Source: a phage. From it: DNA of 64,000 bases. Each line of letters begins with the position of its first letter. Positions within the stretch are counted from its first letter, which is position 1. Shown one piece after another: positions 27,754-44,560 of the stretch. The position numbers and the translations under genes were made by a program. The notes beneath the pieces are model-generated. The model had not been told where the DNA came from and ran no database searches. It was given only the letters and a program-made list of their open reading frames with translations. Location of the stretch: sequence record PX418922.1. One strand, 5' to 3'.

Positions 27754-28701
27754 CTACAAACTTTCAATAACCTGGCGTCGCAACTCGTTTGCATCTGCCA
27801 GATTATAATGTGTTCGAACATGTTCAGCCAAGAACAAGCCACGATCTTCCCGATAGTTTGGATTGCGAAGAAGCTTAACAATTTCGTAATGCCATTCTGC
27901 TTTATTCTCTGCGTAAGCAACAGCGCGAGCATCTACAGGGTTAAAATAAGGTAATACCTTAGAACAAACAATTGGAATACCTTTTGCTCCAGCTTCCAGG
28001 ATTTTGAGATTACTTTTACAATTATTAAAATCGTTATCTACCAAAGGAGCTATAGCAATAGCATGACTTTCGTAAACACTCATGTAATTATCTAAATCTT
28101 TTACAGCGGCTTTATATTTGGCATTTGGTAAATTTCTGCGAATCTTAATCCACTCTTGTCCCGTGATGCTTTGTGATGTTTCATATCCCGCAATAGTAAG
28201 AAGTTCATCATCGAAAGTATTAGAGACTAGTCGTAAGTCTGGTTCGTGACTAGCACCGCCAGCCCATACAACAGGGGTACCGGATGAACGATCATTTGAC
28301 AAAGTGAATTGTCCGCTATCAAAAGGAAGTGCATTTCGGATCACAACAACATTCCTATTTAAGTGACGGATCTTATATGCCAAATATTCCGTAGTCACAA
28401 TAACCACATCAGCAAGCTTAACCATAGCTACAATAGCATGAGTGTTTGACTCGTATAGACTTGCTAAATAATGTTCTGGATTAAGTTGGTAAAAATCATC
28501 TAAGTCTACAACAACCTTAACACCTTGACGTTTCAAAGATAAAACGTATTCTGCACCTTTAGAGTGGATACGGTTAAACACAACAACATCTTTCTTAGGT
28601 TGAATATTATTGTTGTTAAATGGTATAACAATACGATGATAGTCACAACCGCTGTGAGGTTTTGCATCAATTTTTAGTTTAGACCATTTTTTATTTGACA
28701 T
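27754..28701 (-). CDS. glycosyltransferase-like protein (GT-B-like), paralog B
   Basis: 315-aa ORF, 'NLKILEAGAKGIPIVCS'; clear paralogy with 26802-27746 over full length. Confidence 0.4.
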   Translation of the reverse strand: MSNKKWSKLKIDAKPHSGCDYHRIVIPFNNNNIQPKKDVVVFNRIHSKGAEYVLSLKRQGVKVVVDLDDFYQLNPEHYLASLYESNTHAIVAMVKLADVVIVTTEYLAYKIRHLNRNVVVIRNALPFDSGQFTLSNDRSSGTPVVWAGGASHEPDLRLVSNTFDDELLTIAGYETSQSITGQEWIKIRRNLPNAKYKAAVKDLDNYMSVYESHAIAIAPLVDNDFNNCKSNLKILEAGAKGIPIVCSKVLPYFNPVDARAVAYAENKAEWHYEIVKLLRNPNYREDRGLFLAEHVRTHYNLADANELRRQVIESL

Positions 28702-29374
28702 GTGCTAGTGCCTCCTCATAGGAAATTCGGATTTTCCCATTTTTAATATCCTCTAAAGATGCTTTATATTCTTCCCAGTTAATCCCAATAGCAGCCTCTT
28801 TCTCTTCTTTTGTCAGGTTAGCAAAAGGCATAGGATTGTTTCCAAAAACATCGTCTGGGTGGATATAAGCCATGATACGAAGTGGACAAGGTGTTGCCTG
28901 AATACCATGATTCAAACCAGCAGCTTGCAAACGGTGTCCCCATTCAGCATCTTCAAAACCATAACCGTGAGTGTAAGGACGGAAATAACCCATCTTCTCA
29001 ACAACGGAACGAGAATACATTGCAAATTGACACATTGCAAGTTCCCAGAGAATAACTTCTCCTTTGCTTCCAACAACTTTATCTTTGAAATACTCCGGCA
29101 TACCAAAGAAATCCCATCCTCCAGAGACAGCTTGATCTACAAAGTATGTTTCCCATCCCTCCATGACTGGGTAGCAATCATCGTCAAAAATAAACCAATA
29201 ATCATAACCTTCTTCATAAAACTGGTGCATAAGTTCATTCCTGGCATAAGCTACACCTTTACGATCTGGATCGTTGAATACTCGAAAATCTGCACGTGGA
29301 TCTGTTACAAGGTAGTCTTTAAGTGGACGGACACCTACAGTGATAACACCCACTCCGATTTTAATATTTTCCAT
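28691..29374 (-). CDS. glycosyltransferase (GT-A fold-like)
   Basis: 'FIFDDDCYP' DxD-type motif and 'GYGFEDAEWGHRL'. Confidence 0.45.
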   Translation of the reverse strand: MENIKIGVGVITVGVRPLKDYLVTDPRADFRVFNDPDRKGVAYARNELMHQFYEEGYDYWFIFDDDCYPVMEGWETYFVDQAVSGGWDFFGMPEYFKDKVVGSKGEVILWELAMCQFAMYSRSVVEKMGYFRPYTHGYGFEDAEWGHRLQAAGLNHGIQATPCPLRIMAYIHPDDVFGNNPMPFANLTKEEKEAAIGINWEEYKASLEDIKNGKIRISYEEALAHVK

Positions 29375-29382
29375 TTTCTCTC

Positions 29383-29946
29383 CTAAATAGTTTTACTGTG
29401 ATCATGACAGTGTAATAAATGATGTATAGACCGTTGAGGATCTGTTTGACCTAATCTGTAAATGTGAAACAGATACATTCCCCGCATCAATCCTAACCTC
29501 TTTCCTTTTTCATGTAAAGTGCGAGAGAAAATTAAGTCGAATTGGATAGATTTTTCTTCGAAAGGAATTTCATTCCACAATGATTTTCTAAAAAGCAAAA
29601 AGAAACCTGCCAGAGGTGTTCCGAAAGGAACTTCTTCAACACTTACTTTATGATATTCCCTTGCAATCTTAGCATATTCTATATGGTTTAGAATATCGGG
29701 ATCATCGTTAATTTGGTTAGAGAAAAGCTGATAACCACTACCTAACCTGTTACAAGTTGCACCTATTACATCAAAAGGCGGGTTTGACATAACAAGCTCT
29801 TCAAGCATAGATGGTTGATCAGGTAGGAGGAACATTGTATCGGTATCTCTTAAACACACCCAACTATCGTCTGGAAGAACGGCAATAGCTTCATTGATAG
29901 CCTTGCCGATATTTCCTGTCAGATAGGGAGTAATATAATAAATCAT
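29383..29946 (-). CDS. possible glycosyltransferase (GT-A-like) / hypothetical
   Basis: 187-aa ORF, 'CLRDTDTMF' DxD-like motif; weak. Confidence 0.3.
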   Translation of the reverse strand: MIYYITPYLTGNIGKAINEAIAVLPDDSWVCLRDTDTMFLLPDQPSMLEELVMSNPPFDVIGATCNRLGSGYQLFSNQINDDPDILNHIEYAKIAREYHKVSVEEVPFGTPLAGFFLLFRKSLWNEIPFEEKSIQFDLIFSRTLHEKGKRLGLMRGMYLFHIYRLGQTDPQRSIHHLLHCHDHSKTI

Positions 29947-30412: not shown

Positions 30413-30711
30413 TCTACAGCATCATGAGTCCTTGCAAAACGCTCCCACAACACAGCATCTACTTTAAGAACCATACAAGGATAAATACTGTCGTTGATCA
30501 TGTCAATGCTATATTTATCTACATCCTTTTCATCTTCCATAAACAAAGTAGCGTATGCTTCTAAATGCTTACGGGTGTAGTATACATCCTCTTCAGTAAG
30601 ACCGACAACCAGGTAACTTGCTACAACAACAGTATTATCTTCTTGCATTTTAACTCCCCTTTGGTAGATAGAAACCATGCACTTTATCTCGATAAACAAG
30701 ACGCATATCAC
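30364..30711 (-). CDS. hypothetical protein
   Basis: 115-aa ORF. Confidence 0.35.
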   Translation of the reverse strand: MICVLFIEIKCMVSIYQRGVKMQEDNTVVVASYLVVGLTEEDVYYTRKHLEAYATLFMEDEKDVDKYSIDMINDSIYPCMVLKVDAVLWERFARTHDAVECSAVMSQNNILGEIH

Positions 30712-31171
30712 GTTCCCAGTGTGTTCTTATATTCCGTTTCTTGAAGTATAGAGCACCTTTAGTAACATCTAAAACAGACCGCAATTCAGGAAAATGTTTC
30801 TCTAAATAAAGTAAACGCTCCGCTATTGCTTTTGCTTCCTGCCACTTATCTTTCTCTGTTACGTTAAAAGTTTTCGCATATGAGAATTGCCCTTTCTGGA
30901 ACAAGACTCCTCTGACTGTGTTAGGGAAGTAGGTATCATTTCTTCTGTTGATTACCACATTCCCAACGGCATTCATTCCTTTTTTACCCAGACCGCGACC
31001 TTCTGCGTAAATTGCACAAGCTAATAGAATTTTATCATTATATTGCTTTGTACATTTGTGAACTACTTTAGCGGTTTTTACGTTTGCAGCTTCGGCTTTC
31101 GCCACAACAGGTGTAAATGTAAAAGCAGTTAAGGATAGTAACGCAACTGTTACAAAGTTTTTTATCAGCAA
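30650..31171 (-). CDS. cell wall hydrolase (SleB/CwlJ-like), candidate secreted endolysin
   Basis: N-terminal signal-like segment; 'LACAIYAEGRG...AVGNVVINR' matches SleB-type hydrolase motif. Confidence 0.6.
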   Translation of the reverse strand: MLIKNFVTVALLSLTAFTFTPVVAKAEAANVKTAKVVHKCTKQYNDKILLACAIYAEGRGLGKKGMNAVGNVVINRRNDTYFPNTVRGVLFQKGQFSYAKTFNVTEKDKWQEAKAIAERLLYLEKHFPELRSVLDVTKGALYFKKRNIRTHWERDMRLVYRDKVHGFYLPKGS

Positions 31172-31270
31172 ATTTTGCCTCCTTTTTAAGTTAACGAATT
31201 TCTAGTATAACACGATAGAGGCTTTATTGCAAGAGGGGGATTTCTCCCCCTCAAAATCATTTGTTAATTA

Positions 31271-31873
31271 TTATGGACATTCATACCATTCTTTTTTACC
31301 ACCGAAGGCCATCACCACATCGCAAATATCCAGACCAGCTTTACCTACACCATATGCTTTCAGCTTCCATTCTCCATCTTCACGAACCAAGGAAGCCACG
31401 TGGCAGATTGTGTTACCAGCTACTTCAGGAGCCAGGAAGTCAAAATCCAGAATTTCCACATTGCGCTCGGAGTCGAAGATTTTAAGCATACCTTCAGAAG
31501 CATGACCAAAACGTTTCAGACCTGTATCATCATCAATGGTCAGAACAAAGGCAATCTCTTGTGCATCAGGAGAGATTTTAGCCAGAGTAATATCAATCTG
31601 CTCCATGCTGCCAGTGCCATCACGAACATCGTCACCAGCGAAGGTAGAACGTTCAGGATCAAACTTGTTAGCATAGCAAACAAGATGACGTGCAGACAGC
31701 ATTTCAGGATTGCCAGCGGCATTGTGACGACAAACCAGTGCACTTACATCCAGATCCAGTTTAGAATCAGACTTCCAAGAGAATTCCAGGCGCAGTTCTT
31801 TCAGAGCCGGAGCAACCTTCTTCAGGGAAATTTTTTCGCTAGAGCCTTTTTTCAGGGAAATTTTATCAGTCAT
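31271..31873 (-). CDS. terD: TerD-domain protein
   Basis: 'LDLDVSALV', 'GDDVRDGTGSMEQIDITL', 'IAFVLTIDD', 'VASLVREDGEWKLKAYGVG' match TerD family hallmarks. Confidence 0.7.
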   Translation of the reverse strand: MTDKISLKKGSSEKISLKKVAPALKELRLEFSWKSDSKLDLDVSALVCRHNAAGNPEMLSARHLVCYANKFDPERSTFAGDDVRDGTGSMEQIDITLAKISPDAQEIAFVLTIDDDTGLKRFGHASEGMLKIFDSERNVEILDFDFLAPEVAGNTICHVASLVREDGEWKLKAYGVGKAGLDICDVVMAFGGKKEWYECP

Positions 31874-31888
31874 CTTTTGTCTCCTCTA

Positions 31889-32158
31889 TTATTTAAGTGT
31901 AATACCAGTTACAGTCAATTCTACTTCCAAAAGCTTAGATGTGTTTTGGATTGATACTAATTGTGCATGATGGTTTAGTTCTACAGCAGAATAATCATTT
32001 TCCCCATCATCTACTTTTAAATAAACAATGATTTCACTAAGGTCTAAACCATTTTCGTCAAATGCATTTTCATAGACGAAAGTATCTCCTACATCCAAAT
32101 CTTTAATGGTAAGGCATCGTTTATTTACTTTTTGCTCATCAATTTCGAAGTTTAACAC
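31889..32158 (-). CDS. hypothetical small protein (paralog of 33180-33458)
   Basis: 'DLDVGDTFVYENAFDENGLD...VELTVTGITLK' vs paralog 'DLDVGATFMYYDAYEDAGLD...VDLEVTNITLK'. Confidence 0.4.
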   Translation of the reverse strand: MLNFEIDEQKVNKRCLTIKDLDVGDTFVYENAFDENGLDLSEIIVYLKVDDGENDYSAVELNHHAQLVSIQNTSKLLEVELTVTGITLK

Positions 32159-32387
32159 TTCTTCCTCCTAATGTTATCTCCGGTTTGTATATACGAAGAA
32201 TTATAGCATTTTCATTTTCTTTGTCAACCCATTCTTCATAATCAGGCCATACATGAATCTCTACTCTACTTACAATATCTTCCATTCGCACAGTCCCAAT
32301 GAAATACTCTTTGAGACTGCGCATAATGAAAGCTTCTCTCTCGCGCCAATAATTTTCTATGACTTGAGAGGCAAGCTCGTCGATCAT
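32139..32387 (-). CDS. hypothetical protein
   Basis: 82-aa ORF. Confidence 0.35.
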   Translation of the reverse strand: MIDELASQVIENYWREREAFIMRSLKEYFIGTVRMEDIVSRVEIHVWPDYEEWVDKENENAIILRIYKPEITLGGRSVKLRN

Positions 32388-33178
32388 TTTTTAGCACCTA
32401 CTTTAACAACCCACTCTCCGAACTCTTCAGATAAGAGTTTGTCATAAAGCTCTGAATCTGTCAAGTCTAAATCTTTAATGCCAATAAAACCAACATTATC
32501 ATAAGCATTTGCCAGTTCTTTCAGGAAGCCAAACTTCTCATTACCAACACCAACCATGAACCAATAAATAGGTTTATTCTTATTCTCTTCGATAAGACGA
32601 CGAACAGCACTAGGATCACCATTCTCACCATCCGTCTGGAAGAATACAACACCAGGGGTAATGTCAGCACCTGGTTCAGATACAGCTACAACTTTTTCAC
32701 GCTCTACAGACACTGTTTCAGTTTTACCAAGCAGACGATTAAAGAAGCCTTTCTTTGGAGCCTCCTCTTGTACCACTTGTTTAGTGGTAATATATTTAGT
32801 AACAGTGCCAAAATACTCATCGTAGATATCCGCCATTACAGGGGCGTAATTTGTTCCACCTCCGATACGAACATTACGCATACATTTACCAACATAGTCA
32901 TCGTAAACATCTGCTGTTGCTGGAGTAAGCTCTTGGGAACTCGTATTGAAGGCCCACATATCAATTTGTTGATTATCGTCGAACAGCATACCAAAAGGAA
33001 GCAGTTTACCTACAAAATCACTCACTACCCCATTAGAATATAGACCATGCATACTACCAGAAATATCTAGAGCACATGCTACACGAAGAACAATCTTACC
33101 TTCATTCAGGTTCTTATTCTTTTTCAGAGAGAAAGCAAGGTTTTCTTGACGTTTTTTCAGGCTGATTTTCTCGGACAT
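32384..33178 (-). CDS. von Willebrand factor A domain protein (TerY-like)
   Basis: MIDAS motif 'DISGSM', 'FFQTDGENGD'; N-terminus 'MSEKISLKK' echoes TerD N-terminus. Confidence 0.6.
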   Translation of the reverse strand: MSEKISLKKRQENLAFSLKKNKNLNEGKIVLRVACALDISGSMHGLYSNGVVSDFVGKLLPFGMLFDDNQQIDMWAFNTSSQELTPATADVYDDYVGKCMRNVRIGGGTNYAPVMADIYDEYFGTVTKYITTKQVVQEEAPKKGFFNRLLGKTETVSVEREKVVAVSEPGADITPGVVFFQTDGENGDPSAVRRLIEENKNKPIYWFMVGVGNEKFGFLKELANAYDNVGFIGIKDLDLTDSELYDKLLSEEFGEWVVKVGAKK

Positions 33179-33179
33179 A

Positions 33180-33458
33180 TTATTTCTCCTTCTTAAGTGT
33201 AATATTGGTAACTTCTAAATCTACTTCCACCATATTTGTATCTGGTGGGATGCAATGAGTATAGCCTCGTTGTGCTAGTGATCCATTAATACAGATCGCA
33301 CTGTTTGTGGAATTTTTAATGAACACCAAGTTACGGTAGGTATCCAACCCTGCGTCTTCATAGGCATCATAATACATGAATGTGGCCCCTACGTCAAGAT
33401 CTTCGAAAGCAATAGGTAAATCCTGACTTTTTTCTTCTTGAATATTGAATCTAAACAC
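33180..33458 (-). CDS. hypothetical small protein (paralog of 31889-32158); start inferred at GTG
   Basis: Track ORF is 33180-33524; RBS 'gaggagg' sits 5 nt upstream of in-frame GTG at 33456-33458, giving a length matching the paralog. Confidence 0.35.
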   Translation of the reverse strand: MFRFNIQEEKSQDLPIAFEDLDVGATFMYYDAYEDAGLDTYRNLVFIKNSTNSAICINGSLAQRGYTHCIPPDTNMVEVDLEVTNITLKKEK

Positions 33459-34014
33459 GCATACCTCCTCTACCAATTTTGAAGCCCAAATCGTAAGCTT
33501 CCTTGGTGATCTTTTGTAACTCACTTATAGGAAGTGTTACAAGAGGATCATCTTCTTCAATTTCCATCTTATCATCTTCTGTTTCAATGAGAGTATTATG
33601 CACTTTGTGATAAGGGTTGTCAACACGTTTAAACTTATTCTTTTCTGTGCTGAAAAAACAATCTGGATCTTCTTCGCCATCACCCCAACCTTGGTTAGGA
33701 TCTCCGTCAGATTGTTCTGTAGGGATTTCACCTGTAAAGTACTCTTCCAGCACCATAGCGATACCGTCCCTTGGATTTGAGGAATGCATCAAATCACAAA
33801 CCTTACCCCAATCCATAGCCCATTCGAACCGTTCACGAACGCCGTTTTCATCCTCCTTTCCAGAGAAAACACAACCATAACTATCATAGTTGCCATACAT
33901 CTCTTCAATAACAACACCGTCCTTCAAAAGAAAGAGATAACAAGGTGATCCGTCGAAAGAAGTAGAAAGGGCAGCTTTGCCCGATTCTTTGCACAAAAAG
34001 CTAAAACAACCCAT
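33451..34014 (-). CDS. hypothetical acidic protein
   Basis: 187-aa ORF. Confidence 0.4.
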   Translation of the reverse strand: MGCFSFLCKESGKAALSTSFDGSPCYLFLLKDGVVIEEMYGNYDSYGCVFSGKEDENGVRERFEWAMDWGKVCDLMHSSNPRDGIAMVLEEYFTGEIPTEQSDGDPNQGWGDGEEDPDCFFSTEKNKFKRVDNPYHKVHNTLIETEDDKMEIEEDDPLVTLPISELQKITKEAYDLGFKIGRGGMRV

Positions 34015-34412
34015 TACAAACCCTCCTTCAGATTATCAAGAGCTACAGTGGTTTCACAAAATTCTCCATAAGCTTTATGATGTTCCAGAAAAGCTTCGGG
34101 TCCACCCCAGTCATTATCTTGTGTATTCCAGCCATCAATAAAAGCATCTTCAATGATTGTGATCAGTTCCTGTCGAGTCAACGTAATGGTATCAGGTTTC
34201 TGCGTAGTTTCCACACGGAACCCTGGTTCTTCATAAAAACCTTTAGTTACAATGGATTCTAACTCTTCTGCATCACAGAGGAAGTAGCCACAAAGATAAC
34301 ACCAACCGTCACCATCTTTCATTACTTCATAAACTTCACCACTTGCTAACTTGGTGAAAAGAGTAGGGTCTGTTACTGTAAGTTTTAAAAGAATACCTGT
34401 TGGATTATACAT
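34014..34412 (-). CDS. hypothetical protein
   Basis: 132-aa ORF with RBS 'gaggagg' before ATG. Confidence 0.4.
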   Translation of the reverse strand: MYNPTGILLKLTVTDPTLFTKLASGEVYEVMKDGDGWCYLCGYFLCDAEELESIVTKGFYEEPGFRVETTQKPDTITLTRQELITIIEDAFIDGWNTQDNDWGGPEAFLEHHKAYGEFCETTVALDNLKEGL

Positions 34413-34578
34413 CTTCTTCCTCCTCTAAAATATGGAACCCGTAATTACAATAATCCTGAAAGGTTTCGTGCGCAAGATCTTCTATATCCTCTTGAGACAT
34501 ATCATCTTCAATTTCGATATCCACAACCTCATTGCATCCACACCAAGCAGTTTCAATATTCACTCGTAATATTTTCAT
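34405..34578 (-). CDS. small acidic Cys-containing ORF not in supplied track
   Basis: 57-codon ORF 'MKILRVNIETAWCGCNEVVDIEIEDD...' filling an otherwise empty gap, with overlapping stop/start at both ends. Confidence 0.3.
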   Translation of the reverse strand: MKILRVNIETAWCGCNEVVDIEIEDDMSQEDIEDLAHETFQDYCNYGFHILEEEEDV

Positions 34579-34775
34579 TACTCCTCCTCCTCATTGAAGT
34601 CAATATCTGCAAGGAGTTCGAATTTACGGAAGTTACGACAACCTTCATAAATATAACAATCACGACAAACTGCTAGAACACTTGGGGGATATATACCTCC
34701 CATCGGTGCGAATCGTTTTTCGTCATCATAACGGACACCAATGTCTTCATCAATTATATAGATACGGATTCTCAT
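34578..34775 (-). CDS. hypothetical small protein
   Basis: 65-aa ORF. Confidence 0.3.
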   Translation of the reverse strand: MRIRIYIIDEDIGVRYDDEKRFAPMGGIYPPSVLAVCRDCYIYEGCRNFRKFELLADIDFNEEEE

Positions 34776-35884
34776 TTACCAAGCCCTCGTTTCACAGCAG
34801 CTACCATCCCGTCTTCCAGAGATTGAACTTCATTAATATAATCAACACGAGCAGCACGGGCTTCCGTATTGATGCGGTTAGTTTCTTCCAACATCTTAAC
34901 CAAGTTTTCCTGATCGTGACGCAGAGTTTCAATATCCAACACTTGACGGTTAGCCAGTGCTGCTGCTTCGATCTGATTCTGTGTGGCAAGATCGCTACCC
35001 AGTTTAATTGCCAGGTTAAATTCATCAAGAACGTTATTCTGCGTCTCTGCTGCTTTCATTTGACGTAAGCTCTCGATATACATTGAGAAGTTAGCAGAGT
35101 AAGCAGGAATAACATTATTTACTATGTTACGCGCAGATCGCATTAAGCTTGCAGAAACTTTTTGCATACCTTGTACACGCGGTCCCATTTGGACACACAG
35201 TAGGCGCAATGCTTTTAAATCTGCAATACGAATCTCCAGAAGATCCAAAGTATCTCGGATCACTTGTCGCTGTTCTACTGCATCTTCTGGAAGAGCAGCC
35301 AAAGCTTGTTCTTCTTTTTCATAGGTTGTTGTTAGAAGCTGCATATCTCGGTTCAAACTTGCAGCATATTGTCCAATAGCTTGATGTAGCTTTTCAAGAT
35401 ATACCAAAGAATCTTCTTCTTTGCGAATATCCATTTGAAGGTTCTTTACCAACTCTTCAATACGGTTATTAACATTATCAAACTCCCCAAACAGGTCTTC
35501 TTTCATACCCATAACTTTTTTAATGAGTTTAGTAATACCCTTGCTTTGTTTAATAGAGTTTGGATCAAGTTGTTTTGCCTGTTTAATCAAAGCTGTGAGT
35601 CGTTCACTCATCTGATCGCCTTGATTACTACGTTGATGTTTTAATACCTCGGCATTCAAGGAACGCAAGGTTGTTCCTGCCTCTGCCCCAATCTCTTCGA
35701 TCTCTTGTCGGGTCATAGAAGGCAAAACTGGAACTTCTTGCGGTGCGGCTGGTGCATAAACAGGACTGGCATCTAACACGCTTGGAGCGAATACAGATTT
35801 ACTTGCATCTGTTGTTGCAGCAAATACGCTCATTTCAGGCTTCTTCTGACCGCCAGTAGCTGCTTTTAAAAATGGACTTGTCAT
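34772..35884 (-). CDS. TelA-like (toxic anion resistance family) coiled-coil protein
   Basis: 370-aa largely helical ORF of TelA-like size, located between TerD/vWA and TerC genes; assignment mainly contextual. Confidence 0.45.
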   Translation of the reverse strand: MTSPFLKAATGGQKKPEMSVFAATTDASKSVFAPSVLDASPVYAPAAPQEVPVLPSMTRQEIEEIGAEAGTTLRSLNAEVLKHQRSNQGDQMSERLTALIKQAKQLDPNSIKQSKGITKLIKKVMGMKEDLFGEFDNVNNRIEELVKNLQMDIRKEEDSLVYLEKLHQAIGQYAASLNRDMQLLTTTYEKEEQALAALPEDAVEQRQVIRDTLDLLEIRIADLKALRLLCVQMGPRVQGMQKVSASLMRSARNIVNNVIPAYSANFSMYIESLRQMKAAETQNNVLDEFNLAIKLGSDLATQNQIEAAALANRQVLDIETLRHDQENLVKMLEETNRINTEARAARVDYINEVQSLEDGMVAAVKRGLGK

Positions 35885-36471
35885 TCTTCATTCTCCTCTT
35901 CTGCATCTCTTATATATGGTGAAACACCGTACTCTTTAGCTACTTTAACCCAATCGTCCCATTTATACAACCATAATTTTCCTTCGGTCCCTTCTTTATC
36001 TGATTTCAACCACATATTAGGTTGCTTACCCGGGTACATGCGATTAGGTTTACGATTATAACCTCTAACACATCTTGTCGCAAACCTATCTACCAGAACA
36101 AGAACATATTTATACTCGTGGTTCAACGGCTCTTTGGAAGTGGCTTTAGGATTAGCCCCTAATTCTGCTGCCAGTTTTTGCCAATGAGCACCGTGCCTAC
36201 TAAACTTACCCATACAACCATCAATAGCATGAGCAATTTCGTGCTTCATTGTATCCACGATCATATCTCTTGTGGAGTTCTTATGCAAGTGCCAATTTAC
36301 AACAACAATTTTATCTCGGTAGTTGCACCAACCGAAAGAGTTATTCACTTTGTTTCTAACACAAGCTTTATATCCTGCTTCACGTAACATGTTGTAGTAA
36401 ACAGGAAAATCTTCTTTTATTTCCTGCATCACTTCCCACCACAAGAGTTGCAAGTCTCTCTCGGTATGCAT
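35881..36471 (-). CDS. SprT-like zinc metallopeptidase-like protein
   Basis: 'MKHEIAHAIDG...RHGAHW' HExxH motif in SprT-like context. Confidence 0.45.
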   Translation of the reverse strand: MHTERDLQLLWWEVMQEIKEDFPVYYNMLREAGYKACVRNKVNNSFGWCNYRDKIVVVNWHLHKNSTRDMIVDTMKHEIAHAIDGCMGKFSRHGAHWQKLAAELGANPKATSKEPLNHEYKYVLVLVDRFATRCVRGYNRKPNRMYPGKQPNMWLKSDKEGTEGKLWLYKWDDWVKVAKEYGVSPYIRDAEEENEE

Positions 36472-36474
36472 AAC

Positions 36475-37068
36475 TTACACCTTAAAAGCGAAATGCGTGG
36501 TCGTGGCTTCAAAATCAGGGCCAGATAAACTTGCACTGAAATCTGAAATATTTGTAATTAAAAAGCTTTTATGCATACCTAACACAGCCACGCTTTCAAT
36601 ATCTTCTACTAACATTTCAATCATGTTAGAAACATGGCTGAACGTATAGTTTTGTTTTTTGATGGTGTAGAAAGAAAGACTCCCACCTGCTGTATAAGAT
36701 ACCTCTTCAAAATCTTTAATCGTATATTGTGTGCCATCAGTAAAGAAAATGGTAGCTTTATTAGTAGCACGTTTCTTGTTTTTTGGTCCTTTTTTACGTT
36801 TACTGCGAGTAGGCAAACCGTTTGGGAACACCATAGCTACAAATTCTTCAGCAGAAACCTCCTTACCGAAATCATAACCATAAGAAACAGCGTCTATAAA
36901 CTCGTCATCTTCATTTTTAAAATAATGGAAATAGGGCCGATTTGAAAGATTATCAAGCATCTTATGCTCGTCCACAGCAGAGAATGTATCCCTCAAAGCG
37001 CGTGTGATTTGCAAAGCATTAGGCAACCTTTTAACACCTACGATGGAAGTACGAATAGAAATTGTCAT
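36475..37068 (-). CDS. hypothetical protein
   Basis: 197-aa ORF. Confidence 0.4.
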   Translation of the reverse strand: MTISIRTSIVGVKRLPNALQITRALRDTFSAVDEHKMLDNLSNRPYFHYFKNEDDEFIDAVSYGYDFGKEVSAEEFVAMVFPNGLPTRSKRKKGPKNKKRATNKATIFFTDGTQYTIKDFEEVSYTAGGSLSFYTIKKQNYTFSHVSNMIEMLVEDIESVAVLGMHKSFLITNISDFSASLSGPDFEATTTHFAFKV

Positions 37069-37082
37069 TGTTTTTCTCCTTA

Positions 37083-37520
37083 TTAACGCCGCTTGCTACG
37101 AGATGAACTCTTTTTACTTAAAGGGCTATTGTAAGATTTACGAGTTGTATAGCTACTATTTGTTTTAAAAGTTTGTCTCGGCTTTTCATAAGTTTTTATC
37201 TCTTGTTTAGGCTTACCATAAAAATTAGTTTTCGGTTTAGGTGTATTATAATGCTTATTAATAATCGTTCTGTTATCGTTATAATCCCCACTGCTACGAT
37301 TACTACCACCACTCATCATATGCCCTAACAACATACCTGTAGCAAACTCACTAACACCGCTACTACTAGAACCGCCACCATTGTTGATAATAGTTGTATC
37401 TCCGTCAGATCCTTGTTGAGCGTATTGTTGAGGAGGTTGTTGGTATTGTGCAGGATTTGTTTCATCCTCGCAAGCTGTTAAAAAGATACAACCAATTAAA
37501 ATCAGGGCTAGTTTTTTCAT
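37083..37520 (-). CDS. lipoprotein (Gly/Ser- and Lys-rich)
   Basis: Track ORF extends to 37595; likely start 'MKKLALILIGCIFLTAC' with lipobox LTAC (ATG at 37518-37520). Confidence 0.5.
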   Translation of the reverse strand: MKKLALILIGCIFLTACEDETNPAQYQQPPQQYAQQGSDGDTTIINNGGGSSSSGVSEFATGMLLGHMMSGGSNRSSGDYNDNRTIINKHYNTPKPKTNFYGKPKQEIKTYEKPRQTFKTNSSYTTRKSYNSPLSKKSSSRSKRR

Positions 37521-37707
37521 ATTTGCTTTCCTCGTTTTGGCTATTAATACATCTGTGTTTGAAATCTCCAGAGAAGCAATAAAGTTGCTCTCCATCTCGG
37601 TATAAACTCACTTTACTGCCGTTGATTACGCTTGTCAATACAAAAATTACAACAAACAACCCTATTGCAAAACAGATATTTTCAAACACAACCAACAAGT
37701 ATTTCAT
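37462..37707 (-). CDS. small membrane protein
   Basis: 81-aa ORF with N-terminal TM segment; overlaps lipoprotein gene start out of frame. Confidence 0.3.
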   Translation of the reverse strand: MKYLLVVFENICFAIGLFVVIFVLTSVINGSKVSLYRDGEQLYCFSGDFKHRCINSQNEESKYEKTSPDFNWLYLFNSLRG

Positions 37708-38054
37708 TTTAAAAACACCTCATCATCAGTCTCATTATCCCAGAAGAACAAATCCCAACCATTTGGATCATTCCATTTGGCTGCTGGAGAAGTCCATATT
37801 TGCTCAATATCAATATTCAAAACTTCACCGTTTCGTTTTGAAACAGCTTTAGTTAATTCCCAACGAGATACAGGCTCTACTTCTCCTGAACCACTTCCAC
37901 AACAAGCTACAACATTAGGAGGCAAATTAATTGGATCTTTGGTCACAATCATAACGCTTACCCCAGGGTAAACTTTTGAAAGATAATCTAAAACGTAATC
38001 CACATCACCAGATAAATCCCAAACAAGTTCTTGAATTTCATCAAAATTATTCAT
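37704..38054 (-). CDS. hypothetical protein
   Basis: 116-aa ORF. Confidence 0.4.
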   Translation of the reverse strand: MNNFDEIQELVWDLSGDVDYVLDYLSKVYPGVSVMIVTKDPINLPPNVVACCGSGSGEVEPVSRWELTKAVSKRNGEVLNIDIEQIWTSPAAKWNDPNGWDLFFWDNETDDEVFLK

Positions 38055-38065
38055 AAGTCTCTCCT

Positions 38066-38090
38066 ATAAAATAGCCTCCCGAAGGAGGCT
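38066..38090 (-). terminator. possible terminator hairpin after TerC gene
   Basis: 'agcctcccgaaggaggct' hairpin; on minus strand followed by 'attttat'. Confidence 0.4.
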
Positions 38091-38096
38091 CATCTA

Positions 38097-39071
38097 TTAA
38101 ACAGCAGCTTCTTCTTTTTCAGGGAAGATAAAGCTTGCAATAACACCAAGAGCTAATGTGCCTAGAACAATCATCAGACTTACGTTAGGGGAAATATCAT
38201 GCGGGAGGAATGACCACTTGGCATGAAGTGTTTCACCGAACGGGTGATACATAAGTTTAGCACCGACAAATACCAGAACCACAGCAACAGCTTTCTCTAA
38301 GTGAACCAGATATTTCACAGCTACACTTAACACAAAGAAAAGTGCACGTAAACCAAGAACAGCCATCAGCATTGCAGAATAAACTAGCAGAGGTTCTTGT
38401 GTCACACCGATCACAGCCGGAACTGAATCAAAAGAGAAGACAATATCTGTAAGCTCAATAACAAACACACAAAGAAGAGCAGGAGTTGCATATTTAATAC
38501 CATTCTTAATGGTGATGAACTTTTCACCATCCAGTGCATTGTGCACAGGCAGAACTTTACCTACTAAACGAACAGCCCAATGCTTAGAGTAATCAATATC
38601 CTCTTCTTCGTCACCACCTTTGATGATAGCCACGGCAGACCAAGCTACAATCAAACCGAACAACACTTGGACCGACCAATGAAGGTTAAACAAAGCGGTC
38701 CCTGCTGCAACAAAAATACCTCGGAAGACAATGGCTCCTGCAATTCCCCAAAGTAAAATCTTATGTTGGAGATGTGTGCTCTTAATTCCAAAGCTTGCAA
38801 AAATTGCCATGAACACCATCAGGTTATCTACAGAAAGACTCTTTTCCAACACATAGCCACTTAGGAAAAGCGCGGCAAACTCTTTACCATGTTCTACCCA
38901 AATGAATGCGTAATATCCTAAAGCTAAAGCAATCCAAAAAACAGACCAAAGCAAAGCAGATTTAATTCCAATTTCTTTATTCTCTTTATGACCAAAGAAA
39001 TCAATACCAATAGACAATGCTAAAATACCAACTAAAACAACTACATCAATAATGGGGAAACCAAGTTGCAT
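38097..39071 (-). CDS. terC: TerC-family integral membrane protein
   Basis: multi-TM ORF with 'EKSLSVDNLMVF' and 'FSFDSVPAVIGVT' motifs characteristic of TerC/Alx family. Confidence 0.7.
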   Translation of the reverse strand: MQLGFPIIDVVVLVGILALSIGIDFFGHKENKEIGIKSALLWSVFWIALALGYYAFIWVEHGKEFAALFLSGYVLEKSLSVDNLMVFMAIFASFGIKSTHLQHKILLWGIAGAIVFRGIFVAAGTALFNLHWSVQVLFGLIVAWSAVAIIKGGDEEEDIDYSKHWAVRLVGKVLPVHNALDGEKFITIKNGIKYATPALLCVFVIELTDIVFSFDSVPAVIGVTQEPLLVYSAMLMAVLGLRALFFVLSVAVKYLVHLEKAVAVVLVFVGAKLMYHPFGETLHAKWSFLPHDISPNVSLMIVLGTLALGVIASFIFPEKEEAAV

Positions 39072-39090
39072 TATTTTCTCCTTTCTCTTT

Positions 39091-39149
39091 GCGGGGAACC
39101 ACTCCCCGCCTCATGTGATACATCTTACTCTATTCTAAAACTTTGTCAA
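39091..39149 (-). promoter_or_regulatory. sigma70-type promoter plus 5' hairpin driving TerC gene (same architecture as 60.7-64 kb array)
   Basis: minus strand reads 'TTGACA-16nt-TAAGAT gtatcacatgaggcggggagtggttccccgc ...aaaggagaaaataATG'. Confidence 0.6.
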
Positions 39150-39152
39150 CAC

Positions 39153-39374
39153 TTATTTTGAAGAACTTGAGGAAAAGATCCCACGTAGTACAGCCATGAT
39201 AAATGCCACACACACCACAGTCCAGAAGGTGACAGGAACAGTGATATCTGTGTGACCCATCATTTCAACAACGTAGTTATAAGCCAGCAGCAGAAGCCAT
39301 GCTGGAATCATACTAATCAGAAAAGCAATAACAAACACAATAATCACTGCAAGAATACCTGCTAAAACGCCCAT
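39153..39374 (-). CDS. small membrane protein
   Basis: 73-aa ORF with two hydrophobic helices. Confidence 0.4.
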   Translation of the reverse strand: MGVLAGILAVIIVFVIAFLISMIPAWLLLLAYNYVVEMMGHTDITVPVTFWTVVCVAFIMAVLRGIFSSSSSK

Positions 39375-39387
39375 AATATTTCTCCTC

Positions 39388-39861
39388 TTAAAGTTTATAA
39401 ATAGTCACATCGTGACCTGTTTTTACTAAAGTTTCTTCAATCATCACTTCAATGATAGCCCAATTACCTCCTGCCAACCCTGCTCCAATCATAGGTAAGC
39501 CGATCTTACATTTTTGGTCACGGAGAAGCAAATCATTAGCCATAGCTATTAGTGCATCGTACAAGGCATCATAGTCCAACTGACGACCTTTAGCATTGTA
39601 TCCATAACGATACTGCCCGTATAGATTATATACCAAAGGATCTGATTGTTCGTCTGGCACCCCTAAACTAAAACAACCTAGTTTACTTTGATCACCAGCC
39701 ATTGTGTCTAAATCTGCCGCATATGCATAAGGGAATGCTCGTTTAATTTGCGGAGCAATTCCTGCTCCCATATTACACATACAATTGCAACAATGAGCAA
39801 TAACAGTTACTTCACCTGCTTTAGCGGCATCGATAAGATTACCTGTTTTCATTTTAAGCAT
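39388..39861 (-). CDS. macro-domain-like protein (ADP-ribose binding/processing)
   Basis: 'GNLIDAAKAGEVTVIAHCCNCMCNMGAGIAPQI' and 'IGLPMIGAGLAGG' resemble macro domain motifs; start moved to internal ATG with RBS 'aaggag' (track: 39388-39927). Confidence 0.4.
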   Translation of the reverse strand: MLKMKTGNLIDAAKAGEVTVIAHCCNCMCNMGAGIAPQIKRAFPYAYAADLDTMAGDQSKLGCFSLGVPDEQSDPLVYNLYGQYRYGYNAKGRQLDYDALYDALIAMANDLLLRDQKCKIGLPMIGAGLAGGNWAIIEVMIEETLVKTGHDVTIYKL

Positions 39862-39874
39862 TTTTAGCTCCTTA

Positions 39875-40702
39875 TTACAGAATGTGTTGTTTTGTGTAAC
39901 GATCCAAGAATTCAAAGTTTTCAGCATACTTTGAAATTCGGTTGTAACCTTCTCCCAAACATCCGAAGAAAAGTTGCTCTACATAGTAGTGTGGCAATTG
40001 GCTAAGAATGATTTTGAAGTCTTCGTGATTTTGGCCCATAAGATACTTAATAGGACGAACAAGACACTGTGCATCACGTTCTTCATTAATCATTTTAACA
40101 AAAGCTTCTGGTGTATTAATATAATTAAAATTCAGTTTAGCTTCGGTATCTGCTTGATTACCTTCATATTTTGCAAAATACAGGAAGTAAACATCATTTT
40201 TAACTTGATTTTCATCAAGGATCTCAATCAGTTTGTCTTCGTGCGTTCCAGTGATATTTACATCATCAATGAATACAAGCTTCTTATCACCCCAGAATTC
40301 TTTGTTGCAGTAGAATGTATCCCCATCAATAAGTTTCTTACGACTAGCTTTATCCAAGAAGCCATAATCATTAATATAGCTAACTTTACGATGAATAATA
40401 TCCAGTTCTGCTGAACGACCTTGATCATATTGTGCTTGCAACATATTAAAGTAATTAATAAAATGATCTGTCATCATTGTGGCAGCATTATGCACATGGT
40501 TGTAAGGAGAAGGAATGATAACAAATTGTTCCCCAATATGTTTCATTGCCACTTGAGCAAAAAACTGAAGTGCCAATTCTTTACCCATACGACGCGCGGC
40601 TTGGTTACTACCAAATTTCAATTTTGAATAATCTTGGATATCAAAAGTAGCAGTTTCCAGGTCATCAAATTTATTTGCAAAAATTTGAGTTTGATTACGC
40701 AT
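39875..40702 (-). CDS. phosphoribosyltransferase-domain protein
   Basis: 'KLVFIDDVNITGTHE' matches PRPP-binding motif of type I PRTases. Confidence 0.45.
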   Translation of the reverse strand: MRNQTQIFANKFDDLETATFDIQDYSKLKFGSNQAARRMGKELALQFFAQVAMKHIGEQFVIIPSPYNHVHNAATMMTDHFINYFNMLQAQYDQGRSAELDIIHRKVSYINDYGFLDKASRKKLIDGDTFYCNKEFWGDKKLVFIDDVNITGTHEDKLIEILDENQVKNDVYFLYFAKYEGNQADTEAKLNFNYINTPEAFVKMINEERDAQCLVRPIKYLMGQNHEDFKIILSQLPHYYVEQLFFGCLGEGYNRISKYAENFEFLDRYTKQHIL

Positions 40703-41351
40703 TTACAATTTCTCCTCTTTTAAGTTTCTCTAGTAAGTCGTTAGGGTTCTTAATATGACAGAAGTTAAATCCTAAGTCAACACATTTTCCATCATATTCT
40801 TCACTATCGCCTACGTGCAATACTTCGTGCCCTAACAGAGGGATCGGAGAATACGTGAGCGTGCGAGCAAAGAATCGCGGATCTGGTTTACAAAGTAAAG
40901 CTTCATCCGAGAAATGGGTGAACTCAAAACAATTCCAACTATCAAACTTACAAGCACGACGCAGGATATCCCCTGATATAAAGTTGGTATTGCTCTTAAT
41001 ACTCAAATCATAACGTCCCGAAAGATACAGCAAGTACATCGGCAGATCCACGGCTACGTGTGGTGGAAACTTAAGGAACCACTGTTCACACTCGAAACGA
41101 AGCTTTGCAGACTTCCAAGGTGTTATCCCAAGTTCAGAACCAAGTTTTTCCCAAGCGTATGCTGCACACTCGGCTTTGCCTTGAAGTGCTGCATTATCCA
41201 GTTCCTTTTTGATCTTCTTATAAGCTGCTCTTGCTTCCACTTCCGTAATATCTCCATATTTTGCGATAGTCCAGGCTCGCATGTCTGCGTAATTGGAGTT
41301 TGCTGTGATCAGTGTGTTCCATACATCAAAAGAGATATGTTTAATAGTCAT
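40695..41351 (-). CDS. HAD-superfamily hydrolase-like protein
   Basis: N-terminal 'FDVWNTL' (motif I-like) and C-terminal 'VGDSEEYD' (motif IV-like). Confidence 0.45.
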   Translation of the reverse strand: MTIKHISFDVWNTLITANSNYADMRAWTIAKYGDITEVEARAAYKKIKKELDNAALQGKAECAAYAWEKLGSELGITPWKSAKLRFECEQWFLKFPPHVAVDLPMYLLYLSGRYDLSIKSNTNFISGDILRRACKFDSWNCFEFTHFSDEALLCKPDPRFFARTLTYSPIPLLGHEVLHVGDSEEYDGKCVDLGFNFCHIKNPNDLLEKLKRGEIVNA

Positions 41352-41352
41352 A

Positions 41353-41958
41353 TTAAGCCCACCATGCGTCTAAGTTAAGATTACTGTCCACTACCACTTG
41401 TTCTATGTGGTAGCCTTTTATCTGTATCCCACTGTTCAAGAGCATATCATACGCTTCATTGAAACGCAACTTATCTTCTGCGGAATATAAGCGAGCATTA
41501 TAAAATCGGTAATCAATTTCTTCAGCATTAGAAGAAATACGGAAGAAGTTTGTTTCTACTTCGGGATCACTTGCTGAAGTCTTAATGTGAACTTCTCCGT
41601 AATTTTCTTTACTTAGATCCATGAAAAGAACACAGGCAACATGTTTAAACATTCGTTCCAGTTTGTAACGAACAACATTGAAACCTGCATTCTCAAGTTT
41701 TTCTACACACTGCAACATTAAAGTAGTGTCGAGATCGCTTTGATACTTTGTTAACATACGATCACGTTGAGACTTTGTATCCCGATGTAAATCAATTGTT
41801 GTGCATTTGGCACCAATAATCTTAGCTGCTTTCATCAACTCTTCAGAACTAACGTTAGATAAAGTAAGATGAAAATGGGCTTTCCACACTTTTTTAGCAG
41901 GGACACCAAAAGATTTATCCCCACTATTCGGCATGCTGACTACTACACTATGTTGCAT
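41353..41958 (-). CDS. hypothetical protein
   Basis: 201-aa ORF; 'HFHLTL' could be a 2H-phosphoesterase-like motif but unconfirmed. Confidence 0.4.
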   Translation of the reverse strand: MQHSVVVSMPNSGDKSFGVPAKKVWKAHFHLTLSNVSSEELMKAAKIIGAKCTTIDLHRDTKSQRDRMLTKYQSDLDTTLMLQCVEKLENAGFNVVRYKLERMFKHVACVLFMDLSKENYGEVHIKTSASDPEVETNFFRISSNAEEIDYRFYNARLYSAEDKLRFNEAYDMLLNSGIQIKGYHIEQVVVDSNLNLDAWWA

Positions 41959-44460: not shown

Positions 44461-44560
44461 TATTAATCCTTATTTTGTGAGTAGAACTATTATTCTACCT
44501 CTTCCAACCGAAAAAAGCTTTGAGGAAAATCAAAAAAGGCGCAAAGTGCGCCTTTAAGTT

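Follow-up and report, generated by a model that had tools for sequence, protein, structure and literature searches.

Ter systems carried by phages have been described in several studies. Iyer et al. (2021; PMC7824862) reported phage Ter systems with a phosphoribosyltransferase (PRTase) and a HAD hydrolase in Acinetobacter phage ME3 and in Caulobacter jumbo phages, mentioned "related smaller tailed phages", and proposed a role in superinfection exclusion. The idea of a linked PRTase+HAD nucleoside pathway goes back to Anantharaman, Iyer and Aravind (2012), as far as it is cited in PMC7824862 and PMC8386662. The terC/terF/terD/telA cluster of phage phiKp34 was described in 2021 as a possible antiviral system (PMC8386662), and terC, terD, terF and telA are also carried by Pseudomonas phage PhiPsa374 (PMC9796965). 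The Ter genes of phage phi92 (gp172/173/178/182) were labelled stress or tellurium-resistance proteins in its GenBank annotation in 2012, and a cocktail metagenome study drew attention to them in 2015 (PMC4690881). Plasmid ter operons inhibit phages and give colicin resistance, according to Whelan (1995) as cited in PMC8386662. Here we analyzed a phage DNA stretch of 64,000 nucleotides (record PX418922.1; hereafter the window), in which genes for TerD, vWA, TelA and TerC proteins were found within 10 kb (positions 31271–41351) together with genes encoding a macro-domain protein, a PRTase and a HAD-fold hydrolase.

We are highly confident that this block represents an abbreviated Ter system joined by a HAD-PRTase_3 cassette. 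It is made up of a four-protein hub (TerC, one TerD, a TerF-type vWA protein and TelA), small membrane proteins and a lipoprotein, and the two-gene cassette. The seven open reading frames (ORFs) named in an earlier sequence-only reading of the window were all present on the minus strand, each in the family named there (Table 1). Profile hidden Markov model (HMM) searches gave significant Pfam matches for TerD, TerC, TelA, vWA, PRTase and Macro, while the HAD match was sub-threshold (4e-4). That reading went too far in calling the Ter set near-complete. Only one TerD-domain protein was encoded, and no TerB, ATP-grasp, lyase or TerY/kinase/phosphatase domain was detected in the ORFs of 31–42 kb. 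TerB, ATP-grasp, lyase/aldolase, PELOTA and the TerY-kinase-phosphatase triad were also absent from the ORFs of 29–46 kb in searches with Pfam (E≤0.01–0.05), PHROGs and NCBIfam. Multiple TerD paralogues (TerZ/A/D/E/F) were not found either, since the block has a single TerD-domain ORF and its vWA protein carries only a short TerD-like N-terminal peptide. The set is therefore better described as an abbreviated hub. The full nucleoside pathway proposed in 2012 reportedly includes ATP-grasp and C-C lyase/aldolase enzymes, and no Pfam domain of these types was found in the block.

Over the 10.5-kb region 31000–41500, identity was 99.0% to Escherichia phage vB_Ec-G1 and 98.5% to phAPEC8, and the window is therefore assigned to Phapecoctavirus (Stephanstirmvirinae), a group of virulent 150-kb myoviruses. 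The block was matched in 134 phage records, 62 of which spanned at least 80% of the region. The view that such a block is unusual in a lytic phage was thus overstated: it is fixed across the subfamily Stephanstirmvirinae (phAPEC8, phi92 and phiKp34), it has the published precedents cited above, and GenBank records of the near-identical phages SKA64 and EF1-1 already annotate TerD, vWA-TerF-like, TelA, TerC, Macro, PRTase and HAD. No paper naming the full module in phAPEC8-like phages was found in the literature searched. The block is a well-conserved example of a described phage Ter module and is close to what is already known. What is new here is modest and includes the constant HAD-PRTase_3 pairing, the replacement of a catalytic Asp by Trp in the HAD protein, the recurring tie to vWA, an apparent phage bias of PRTase_3 and an insulated, swapped TerC cassette.

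Compared with the systems of Iyer et al. (2021), the block encodes the same protein classes (PRTase + HAD, TerD, TerC, TerF-vWA and TelA), for which the same role against superinfecting phages was proposed. However, the window comes from a 150-kb non-jumbo myovirus that is not named in PMC7824862, and its macro gene adjoins the pair. The Caulobacter and Brevundimonas jumbo phages encode homologues of the PRTase_3, HAD, TerD, vWA and TelA of the window, and those of Brevundimonas also encode TerC. In CcrColossus and the Brevundimonas phages the PRTase pair was located 27–36 kb from the Ter genes, whereas all of these genes lie within 10 kb in the window. The window shares its subfamily with phages phiKp34 (vB_KpM_FBKp34) and phi92, which carry the same gene set, with TerC identities of 88% and 71%, respectively, and a TelA identity of 78% for phi92. 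The papers on phiKp34, phi92 and PhiPsa374 dealt with TerC, TerD, TerF-vWA and TelA only and did not connect HAD-PRTase_3 to them, but the pair is present in phiKp34 (gp141/142) and phi92 (gp187/186). PRTase_3 was not detected in Otagovirus-type Pseudomonas phages, as the PRTase search listed no Pseudomonas count versus 37 records for vWA.

The bacterial Ter network, which includes terZABCDEF of IncHI2 plasmids and O157 islands, telA/klaA of RK2 and yceCDEFGH of Bacillus, has homologous TerC, TerD-fold, TerF-vWA and TelA proteins. The combination of these four is what we take to be that of the Bacillus operon. The window differs from this network in its single TerD paralogue, in the lack of TerB, ATP-grasp, lyase and TerY-kinase-phosphatase parts and of riboswitch or TerW-type regulation, and in that the carrier is a lytic virus.

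Within the subfamily, the block was compared with phi92 (Justusliebigvirus) and phiKp34 using tblastn. The blocks of Phapecoctavirus and phi92 were collinear (identities are given in Table 1). The gene order of phiKp34 was reshuffled to TerC ... vWA-TerD-TerD-x-TelA-endolysin ... HAD-PRTase, with all six core genes kept; its HAD-PRTase pair has been relocated, yet it still lies 2–3 kb from TelA. The phi92 and phiKp34 regions yielded no counterpart of the SprT-like gene, the 201-aa ORF upstream of HAD or three small ORFs.

PRTase_3 homologues were detected in 157 phage records, belonging to Stephanstirmvirinae, Rhizobium phages of the Kleczkowskaviridae, Caulobacter and Brevundimonas jumbo phages and Xanthomonas phage XaC1. 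We scanned 27 PRTase_3-centred loci from GenBank phages, plasmids, metagenome contigs and IMG/VR with HMMs obtained from the proteins found here. The HAD gene was located directly upstream of PRTase_3 in 27 of the 27 loci. In seven lineages outside Stephanstirmvirinae (PRTase identity ≤50%), TerC, TerD and vWA genes occurred within 10 kb of the pair, and five of the seven also had TelA. At least four gene orders were displayed by these lineages: TelA-vWA...TerC-HAD-PRT-TerD (L006 and L027), TelA-HAD-PRT-vWA-TerC-TerD (L028), TerC-vWA-TerD-TerD-TelA-HAD-PRT (L030) and TerC-TerD-vWA-HAD-PRT (L010, L011 and L031). The proposal that PRTase and HAD are functionally tied to the Ter genes thus gained support, with the pair lying at most 10 kb from TerC, TerD and vWA in at least seven unrelated phage lineages with varied gene orders.

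The linkage was not universal. In three lineages (XaC1-like and T4-like) an orthologous two-gene cassette, with 48–56% PRTase identity and the same HAD Trp motif, was found beside an RNA ligase, a DUF2828/DUF7788 protein and a 2H-SAK phosphoesterase instead of TerC, TerD or TelA. The same neighborhoods also contained a CCA-adding enzyme, NUDIX and PTH2, and the DUF7788 part weakly overlaps VWA_2. No Ter gene was detectable within 10 kb of the pair in Rhizobium phage TM61, CcrColossus, four IMG/VR contigs and two rhizobial plasmids. In a Rhizobium phage the pair adjoins a nicotinamide mononucleotide (NMN) adenylyltransferase/NUDIX gene, and TelA, TerC and TerD were not detectable with these queries in the Rhizobium phages. 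Conversely, Ter genes occurred without the pair, namely TerC+TerD+TerF+TelA in Otagovirus and TelA in RaK2-/PBECO4-type jumbo phages, so that the Ter genes and the pair are separable. TerC alone was found without the pair in many smaller phages, including Cronobacter phage GAP52 and Proteus, Pectobacterium and Vibrio phages.

Every phage group with PRTase_3 also had a vWA-TerF-like gene somewhere in its genome. When the records were grouped by the first word of the organism name, the PRTase/vWA counts were 105/106 for Escherichia, 10/10 for Klebsiella, 11/10 for Rhizobium and 7/7 for Brevundimonas, and both genes were present in XaC1 and the Caulobacter phages. We regard the repeated, rearranged clustering as good comparative evidence, supporting the idea that HAD-PRTase_3 works with Ter proteins and most consistently with vWA. 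Five phage database records (B15, A145, A150, A110a ...; MG065650, MG065645, MG065639, MG065689) are named as Campylobacter phages and are near-identical to E. coli Phapecoctavirus/Justusliebigvirus; mislabelling of the host, or contamination of the samples, is the probable explanation.

The comparative link between Ter genes and PRTase that the sequence-only reading drew from bacteria held for the phage lineages, and the PRTase family seen here was not found on enterobacterial ter plasmids. The plasmid search detected PRTase_3 only on Rhizobium and Sinorhizobium plasmids, apart from one partial match in Hymenobacter, and the HAD-PRTase pair was without Ter genes in both plasmid loci examined. 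All metagenomic contexts examined were phage-like. PRTase_3 has an apparent phage bias. On the plasmid of Sinorhizobium garamanticum (L013, 2492–18780), the pair was surrounded by genes for a glycosyltransferase, a radical SAM protein, an NAD-dependent epimerase, a GMC oxidoreductase and a UbiA prenyltransferase. This setting resembles a pathway for glycans or lipid-linked sugars more than it does a Ter context.

The PRTase of the pair belongs to PRTase_3 (ComF-like). Its AlphaFold2 model (predicted local distance difference test score, pLDDT, 93) displayed a type I PRTase fold with an added C-terminal helical domain. Foldseek matched the model to HG(X)PRT (6-oxopurine PRTases; 1e-6), ComF (7P0H) and PyrR at 10–17% identity, and a sequence search of the PDB gave no match. 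The loop for phosphoribosyl pyrophosphate (PRPP), VFIDDVNITGTH, was invariant in 45 homologues (D146, D147, T151, G152 and T153; DD..TGTH). The HAD stop codon overlaps the PRTase start by 8 nucleotides (nt).

The HAD-like hydrolase could be recognized in spite of its sub-threshold Pfam match, because it aligned over its full length with the archaeal protein 2OM6, gave weak NCBIfam HAD-IA matches and kept motifs I–IV. These motifs were retained in 13 homologues, with D9, W11, T13, S120, N121, K155, G181 and D182 invariant. Motif I, FDVWNTL, is common to 2OM6. The residue two positions after the HAD nucleophilic Asp (Asp+2) is the general acid/base of phosphatases and mutases. In all 13 sequences this position was occupied by Trp (D-x-W-x-T-L), which departs from the canonical phosphatase DxD.

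Among the hub proteins, the vWA protein retained its metal ion-dependent adhesion site (MIDAS): D38-x-S40-x-S42, T109 and D183 were invariant in an alignment of six phage homologues. Its N-terminal "ISLKK...FSLKK" segment, in which L7, K9, E12 and K20 are conserved, mirrors the first two strands of TerD. The peptide xSLxKRxE...FSLxK was common to the six phage vWA-TerF proteins, so the TerD-like N-terminus pointed out earlier is a family feature. No match to the vWA protein was obtained in a sequence search of the PDB. In TerD, the Ca2+ loop GDNRTGEGDGDDE is shortened to GDD-VRDGTGSME when aligned to GDN(R/L)TGEGDGDDE, and several acidic ligands are substituted. The DxD and TIxD elements are retained in this sequence alignment, from which metal binding cannot be judged.

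TerC is an Alx-type, full-length member of the TerC/Alx metal-homeostasis family. A Mn2+ riboswitch is usually found ahead of alx. A yybP-ykoY (Mn2+) riboswitch was sought upstream of TerC and not found, and there was no Rfam match anywhere in the window. TerC and the neighboring gene for a 73-aa membrane protein were only 65–73% identical to phage SKA64 over 38100–39400, whereas both flanks were 98–100% identical. The 73-aa protein had 79% identity in SKA64 and EF1-1, with flanks of about 100%; in EF1-1 the other allele of this protein was paired with the same TerC. Two TerC allele classes exist within Phapecoctavirus, with 53 records at ≥99% and others, such as tuntematon, REC and ECO340P1, at about 73%. 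TerC and the 73-aa protein form an allele-swapped cassette among near-identical phages, a pattern often seen in conflict or host-interface genes.

GC skew and the ORF map display a single long array of minus-strand genes extending between about 18 and 54 kb of the window. It contains replication and nucleotide-metabolism genes, and NrdD and NrdG immediately precede the block. Consensus scans, together with the promoters and terminators annotated in phage ASO2A, suggest an arrangement of the block as three transcription units on this strand. The first, after a terminator at 44555–44535, would comprise nrdD, nrdG, two small or unknown ORFs, HAD, PRTase, Macro and the 73-aa protein. The second would be TerC alone, from the promoter at 39149–39122 to the terminator at 38090–38073, so that TerC looks like an insulated cassette with its own putative promoter and terminator. 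The third would run from 38054 down to 31271, through the 116-aa, 81-aa, lipoprotein, 197-aa, SprT-like and TelA genes, five ORFs, vWA, two small ORFs and TerD, and end in a hairpin. The promoter calls are sigma-70 consensus matches only, of which 52 were found versus 45.6 expected in shuffled sequence.

Both functions proposed in the sequence-only reading, an effect on metal/membrane physiology and a nucleotide-like signal, are plausible. Because of the hypothesis of Iyer et al. (2021) and the phage-inhibition and colicin-resistance phenotypes of plasmid ter operons, we tentatively favor a Ter complex for superinfection exclusion that uses the HAD-PRTase product as cofactor or signal, although we would put it at somewhat less than an even chance. 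Early in infection, the phage would install the Ter complex at the inner membrane, where TerC would move divalent cations and TelA, vWA and TerD would form a metal-dependent assembly beneath the membrane. The PRTase would condense PRPP with some base and the HAD protein would process the product, and the resulting nucleoside- or nucleotide-like small molecule may act with the vWA/TerD components. Envelope or ion physiology would thereby be altered, so that later phages or colicin-like agents would be excluded while the infected cell stays productive. Consistent with such a role are the conservation in three genera despite rearrangement, the clustering of these genes in independent lineages, the constant HAD-PRTase_3 adjacency, the co-occurrence of PRTase_3 with vWA-TerF-like genes, the intact MIDAS and PRPP motifs, the membrane proteins and lipoprotein, the putative sigma-70-like promoters and terminators, and the TerC allele swap. 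Exclusion systems, for example T4 Imm/Sp and T5 Llp, typically involve membrane proteins and lipoproteins.

Several observations weigh against this exclusion model. With Trp in place of the second catalytic Asp, dephosphorylation of a nucleotide to a nucleoside by the HAD protein is not a secure prediction. The TerD Ca2+ loop appears partly degenerate. The predicted promoter/terminator boundary splits HAD-PRTase from TerC and would leave the pair co-transcribed with nrdDG, and shuffled sequence yields nearly as many promoter matches as the window. In T4-like, XaC1-like and Rhizobium phages and on plasmids, the pair can be found with no Ter genes near it. PADLOC contained no Ter-type model matching TerC, TerD, vWA, TelA, PRTase or HAD, and the literature searched yielded no experiment on a phage Ter gene.

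In an alternative reading, two unrelated functions merely share a neighborhood. HAD-PRTase, with Macro, would then be a metabolic or counter-defence unit of the nucleotide, ADP-ribose or RNA-repair type belonging with nrdDG and would generate no signal for the Ter proteins, and the Ter unit would be TerC, TelA, vWA and TerD only. The predicted unit containing nrdD-nrdG and HAD-PRTase-Macro, set apart from TerC by a putative promoter, a 5' hairpin and terminators, is in agreement with this, as are the RNA-repair-type and NMN adenylyltransferase/NUDIX neighborhoods, the two Rhizobium/Sinorhizobium plasmid loci without Ter genes, and the resemblance of the macro protein to the de-ADP-ribosylases SCO6735, TARG1 and DarG. 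We nevertheless consider it rather unlikely. In seven or more independent lineages the pair is an immediate neighbor of vWA, TerD, TelA or TerC, with differing gene orders, the vWA-TerF-like gene accompanies PRTase_3 in each phage group, the RNA-repair-type neighborhoods too have a vWA-like protein beside the pair, and the pair relocated in phiKp34 has stayed close to TelA. A somewhat smaller likelihood is given to metal homeostasis, in which TerC would export Mn2+ or other cations or metalate Sec-exported proteins, and TerD, vWA and TelA would buffer Ca2+ or other metal and make the membrane more stable. This would keep the infected cell working until lysis, and possibly also its endolysin, and the exclusion of competitors would not be the aim. 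The full-length TerC/Alx match, the solitary TerC of many smaller phages, the signal-like endolysin directly after the Ter genes in all three genera and the adjoining Fe-S/glycyl-radical NrdDG genes are consistent with this explanation. However, a SleB-type hydrolase is not known to require metal. The HAD-PRTase linkage would be left unexplained, the TerD loop appears degenerate, no metal-sensing riboswitch or regulator was found, and TerC allele swapping is more typical of interface or conflict genes. On the side of metal homeostasis, TerC proteins have been reported to export Mn2+ and to metalate exoenzymes during secretion (PMC10550928) and to affect zinc and tellurite resistance (PMC12054061).

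A benefit to the bacterium itself, that is, tellurite or xenobiotic resistance carried like a moron, is very improbable, even though family names and automatic annotations say "tellurite resistance". Against it stand the rarity of tellurite in nature, the membership of the phage in a virulent myovirus group, an annotated region in which neither integrase nor lysogeny genes were seen, the position of the genes within a replication/nucleotide-metabolism cluster, and the lack of TerB and of the multiple TerD paralogues known from resistance operons. Iyer et al. (2021; PMC7824862) mentioned xenobiotic resistance of the host during pseudolysogeny as a secondary possibility. The exclusion model could also be extended to a three-part, largely phage-borne unit of HAD-PRTase_3 and a vWA protein of TerF or DUF7788 type, in which a new ribosylated molecule would be made by the non-canonical HAD protein (Trp at Asp+2) and a PRTase resembling purine PRTases, read by the MIDAS vWA/TerD and used to switch the membrane state via TerC/TelA. 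We regard this as a speculative proposal of low probability. If true, it would be virus-encoded small-molecule signalling in phage-against-phage exclusion and would identify the long-predicted "Ter nucleoside".

The function of Ter systems and the identity of the predicted nucleoside-like metabolite are questions dating from 2012. The value of the block lies in offering a compact E. coli phage system for this long-standing question rather than in surprise: six core genes lie in 10 kb, and the two-gene biosynthetic cassette could be expressed alone, which is practical for metabolite as well as exclusion questions. Many relatives were isolated on MG1655, so the phage group grows on E. coli K-12. 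Therapeutic cocktails also make use of Phapecoctaviruses and phi92-like phages, and regulatory questions arise there from automatic "tellurite resistance" labels (PMC4690881). The incomplete Ter set, without TerB and extra TerD paralogues, is useful context for such labels.

Table 1. Features of the Ter block and its borders in the window, with identities to phi92 proteins (tblastn).
Feature	Position	Strand	Basis and description	Identity to phi92
SleB-type cell-wall hydrolase (endolysin)	30650–31171	−	N-terminal hydrophobic signal-like segment (…TFTPVVAKAEA)	
Hairpin closing the TelA-vWA-TerD unit, before the endolysin gene	31233–31257	−	GAGGGGGAG-aaa-TCCCCCTC; from sequence; terminator annotated at the same place in ASO2A	
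TerD-domain protein	31271–31873	−	PF02342 3.2e-28; Klebsiella TerD 2KXT 1.5e-15, residues 5–183; 3IBZ 2.9e-14	81%
Putative sigma-70 promoter upstream of the 89-aa ORF and TerD	32200–32227	−	Perfect consensus TTGACA-16-TATAAT plus upstream TG; 12/12 consensus match only	
TerF-type vWA protein	32384–33178	−	PF10138 1e-37; found in 219 phage records	67%
187-aa acidic protein between TelA and vWA	33451–34014	−	phrog_14928	76% (gp175)
Putative sigma-70-like promoter upstream of vWA	33595–33623	−	11/12 consensus match	
TelA-family protein	34772–35884	−	PF05816 4e-33, residues 59–361, model positions 13–327/332; 225 phage records	78%
SprT-like zinc metalloprotease domain protein	35881–36471	−	PF10263 4e-9; HEIAH motif; overlaps TelA start	
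197-aa protein	36475–37068	−	phrog_27550, phrog_27504; no Pfam match	39% (C-terminal part; gp179, which adjoins TelA)
Predicted lipoprotein between TerC and TelA	37083–37520	−	MKKLALILIGCIFLTAC lipobox (LTAC)	35% (gp180)
81-aa membrane protein	37462–37707	−	Hydrophobic N-terminus	49% (gp181)
116-aa protein after TerC	37704–38054	−	45% identity to phiKp34 gp125, same position; phrog_27498; no Pfam match	
Putative intrinsic terminator directly after TerC	38073–38090	−	Hairpin AGCCTCC-ttcg-GGAGGCT, then ATTTTAT; annotated terminator in ASO2A	
TerC/Alx-family integral membrane protein (predicted metal-ion transporter)	38097–39071	−	PF03741 3e-40; TIGR03718 TerC/Alx 319 bits versus cutoff 246	71%
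Putative sigma-70-like promoter ahead of TerC	39122–39149	−	TTGACA-16-TAAGAT, then 5' untranslated region hairpin and ribosome-binding site; consensus match; same site annotated as promoter in ASO2A	
73-aa hydrophobic protein, last gene of the nrdDG-HAD-PRTase-Macro unit	39153–39374	−	Predicted membrane-spanning segments	60% (gp184)
Macro domain protein, 157 aa, SCO6735/BT1257/TARG1/DarG class	39388–39861	−	PF01661 23.9 bits versus gathering score 22	49%
Type I PRTase, PRTase_3 (ComF-like), extra C-terminal helical domain	39875–40702	−	PF15610 7.7e-42	65%
HAD-fold hydrolase, upstream partner of PRTase	40695–41351	−	PDB 2OM6 8e-5 over residues 3–211; phrog_14393 2e-117	49%
201-aa ORF abutting the HAD start	41353–41958	−	Invariant H28, H30 and H124; not found in phi92 and phiKp34 regions	

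The macro-like protein scored above the Pfam gathering threshold and matched the SCO6735 macrodomain (5E3B, 8e-14) in the PDB, followed by BT1257, TARG1, DarG and Poa1p. Its phosphate-binding loop IGAGLAGGNW aligned with IGCGLAGGTW of 5E3B. PADLOC gave a DarG match (3e-10), and a DarG antitoxin was considered and rejected: the protein consists of the macro domain only, without the second (C-terminal DarT-binding) domain of DarG, and NF048014 scored 34.7 bits versus a cutoff of 250. In phi92, gp185 is a macro homologue (Pfam Macro 2e-7). Phapecoctavirus and Justusliebigvirus are the only genera in which the macro gene adjoins the pair; the phiKp34 region lacks it, it lies 7–9 kb from the pair in three other lineages, and it is missing from most other lineages. 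Its inclusion in the module was thus not borne out, and the macro protein probably has a separate de-ADP-ribosylating (ADP-ribose-removing) function and is merely co-located. About 8 kb upstream of TerC, phiKp34 (L017, 1700–2986) has an ORF whose annotation reads poly(ADP-ribose) polymerase and lists a WGR, a regulatory and a catalytic domain.

The 201-aa ORF was suspected from its HxHxT and HxK motifs to be a 2H phosphoesterase, which would have given a 2H-HAD-PRTase-Macro pathway for ADP-ribose-phosphate. This candidate was rejected, as there was no Pfam or PDB sequence match, BLAST showed no similarity to 2H-SAK proteins from other loci, and the ORF is absent from phi92 and phiKp34. The ORF had a PADLOC AbiEi match (5e-13) over nearly its full length, and its AlphaFold2 model displayed a tandem ferredoxin-like fold. 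Structural relatives in BFVD were uncharacterised proteins of Rheinheimera and Aeromonas phages, Acinetobacter phage ME3, Sinorhizobium phage phiM12 and several giant viruses.

Other proteins of the block point to the cell envelope, namely the predicted lipoprotein, the two small membrane proteins kept in phi92 and the signal-like endolysin. The lipoprotein has a low-complexity tail rich in Gly, Ser, Asn and Gln, and its phi92 counterpart gp180 is annotated with a signal peptide. The endolysin gene directly follows the Ter genes in Phapecoctavirus, in phi92 and in the rearranged phiKp34. The SprT-like gene, predicted from the overlap to be translationally coupled to TelA, could encode a protease acting on a Ter partner or be an unrelated insertion. 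Proteins of 290–430 aa encoded among the Ter genes of different lineages were considered as homologues of each other or of window ORFs, and BLASTP and Pfam gave only within-lineage pairs.

A second small mosaic patch was observed at 33600–34000, where the N-terminal half of the 187-aa ORF was 78–82% identical in ASO2A while its neighbors were 98–100% identical. Two small paralogous ORFs (31889–32158 and 33180–33458, minus strand), with about 34% mutual identity, flank vWA, and one copy is kept in phi92 (gp174). The surroundings of the block encode helicases, a primase and four glycosyltransferases. The glycosyltransferase run (27754–29946 and upstream, minus strand) is located just downstream of the endolysin and comprises GT-B/GT1-like and GT2-like proteins according to the annotations of others.

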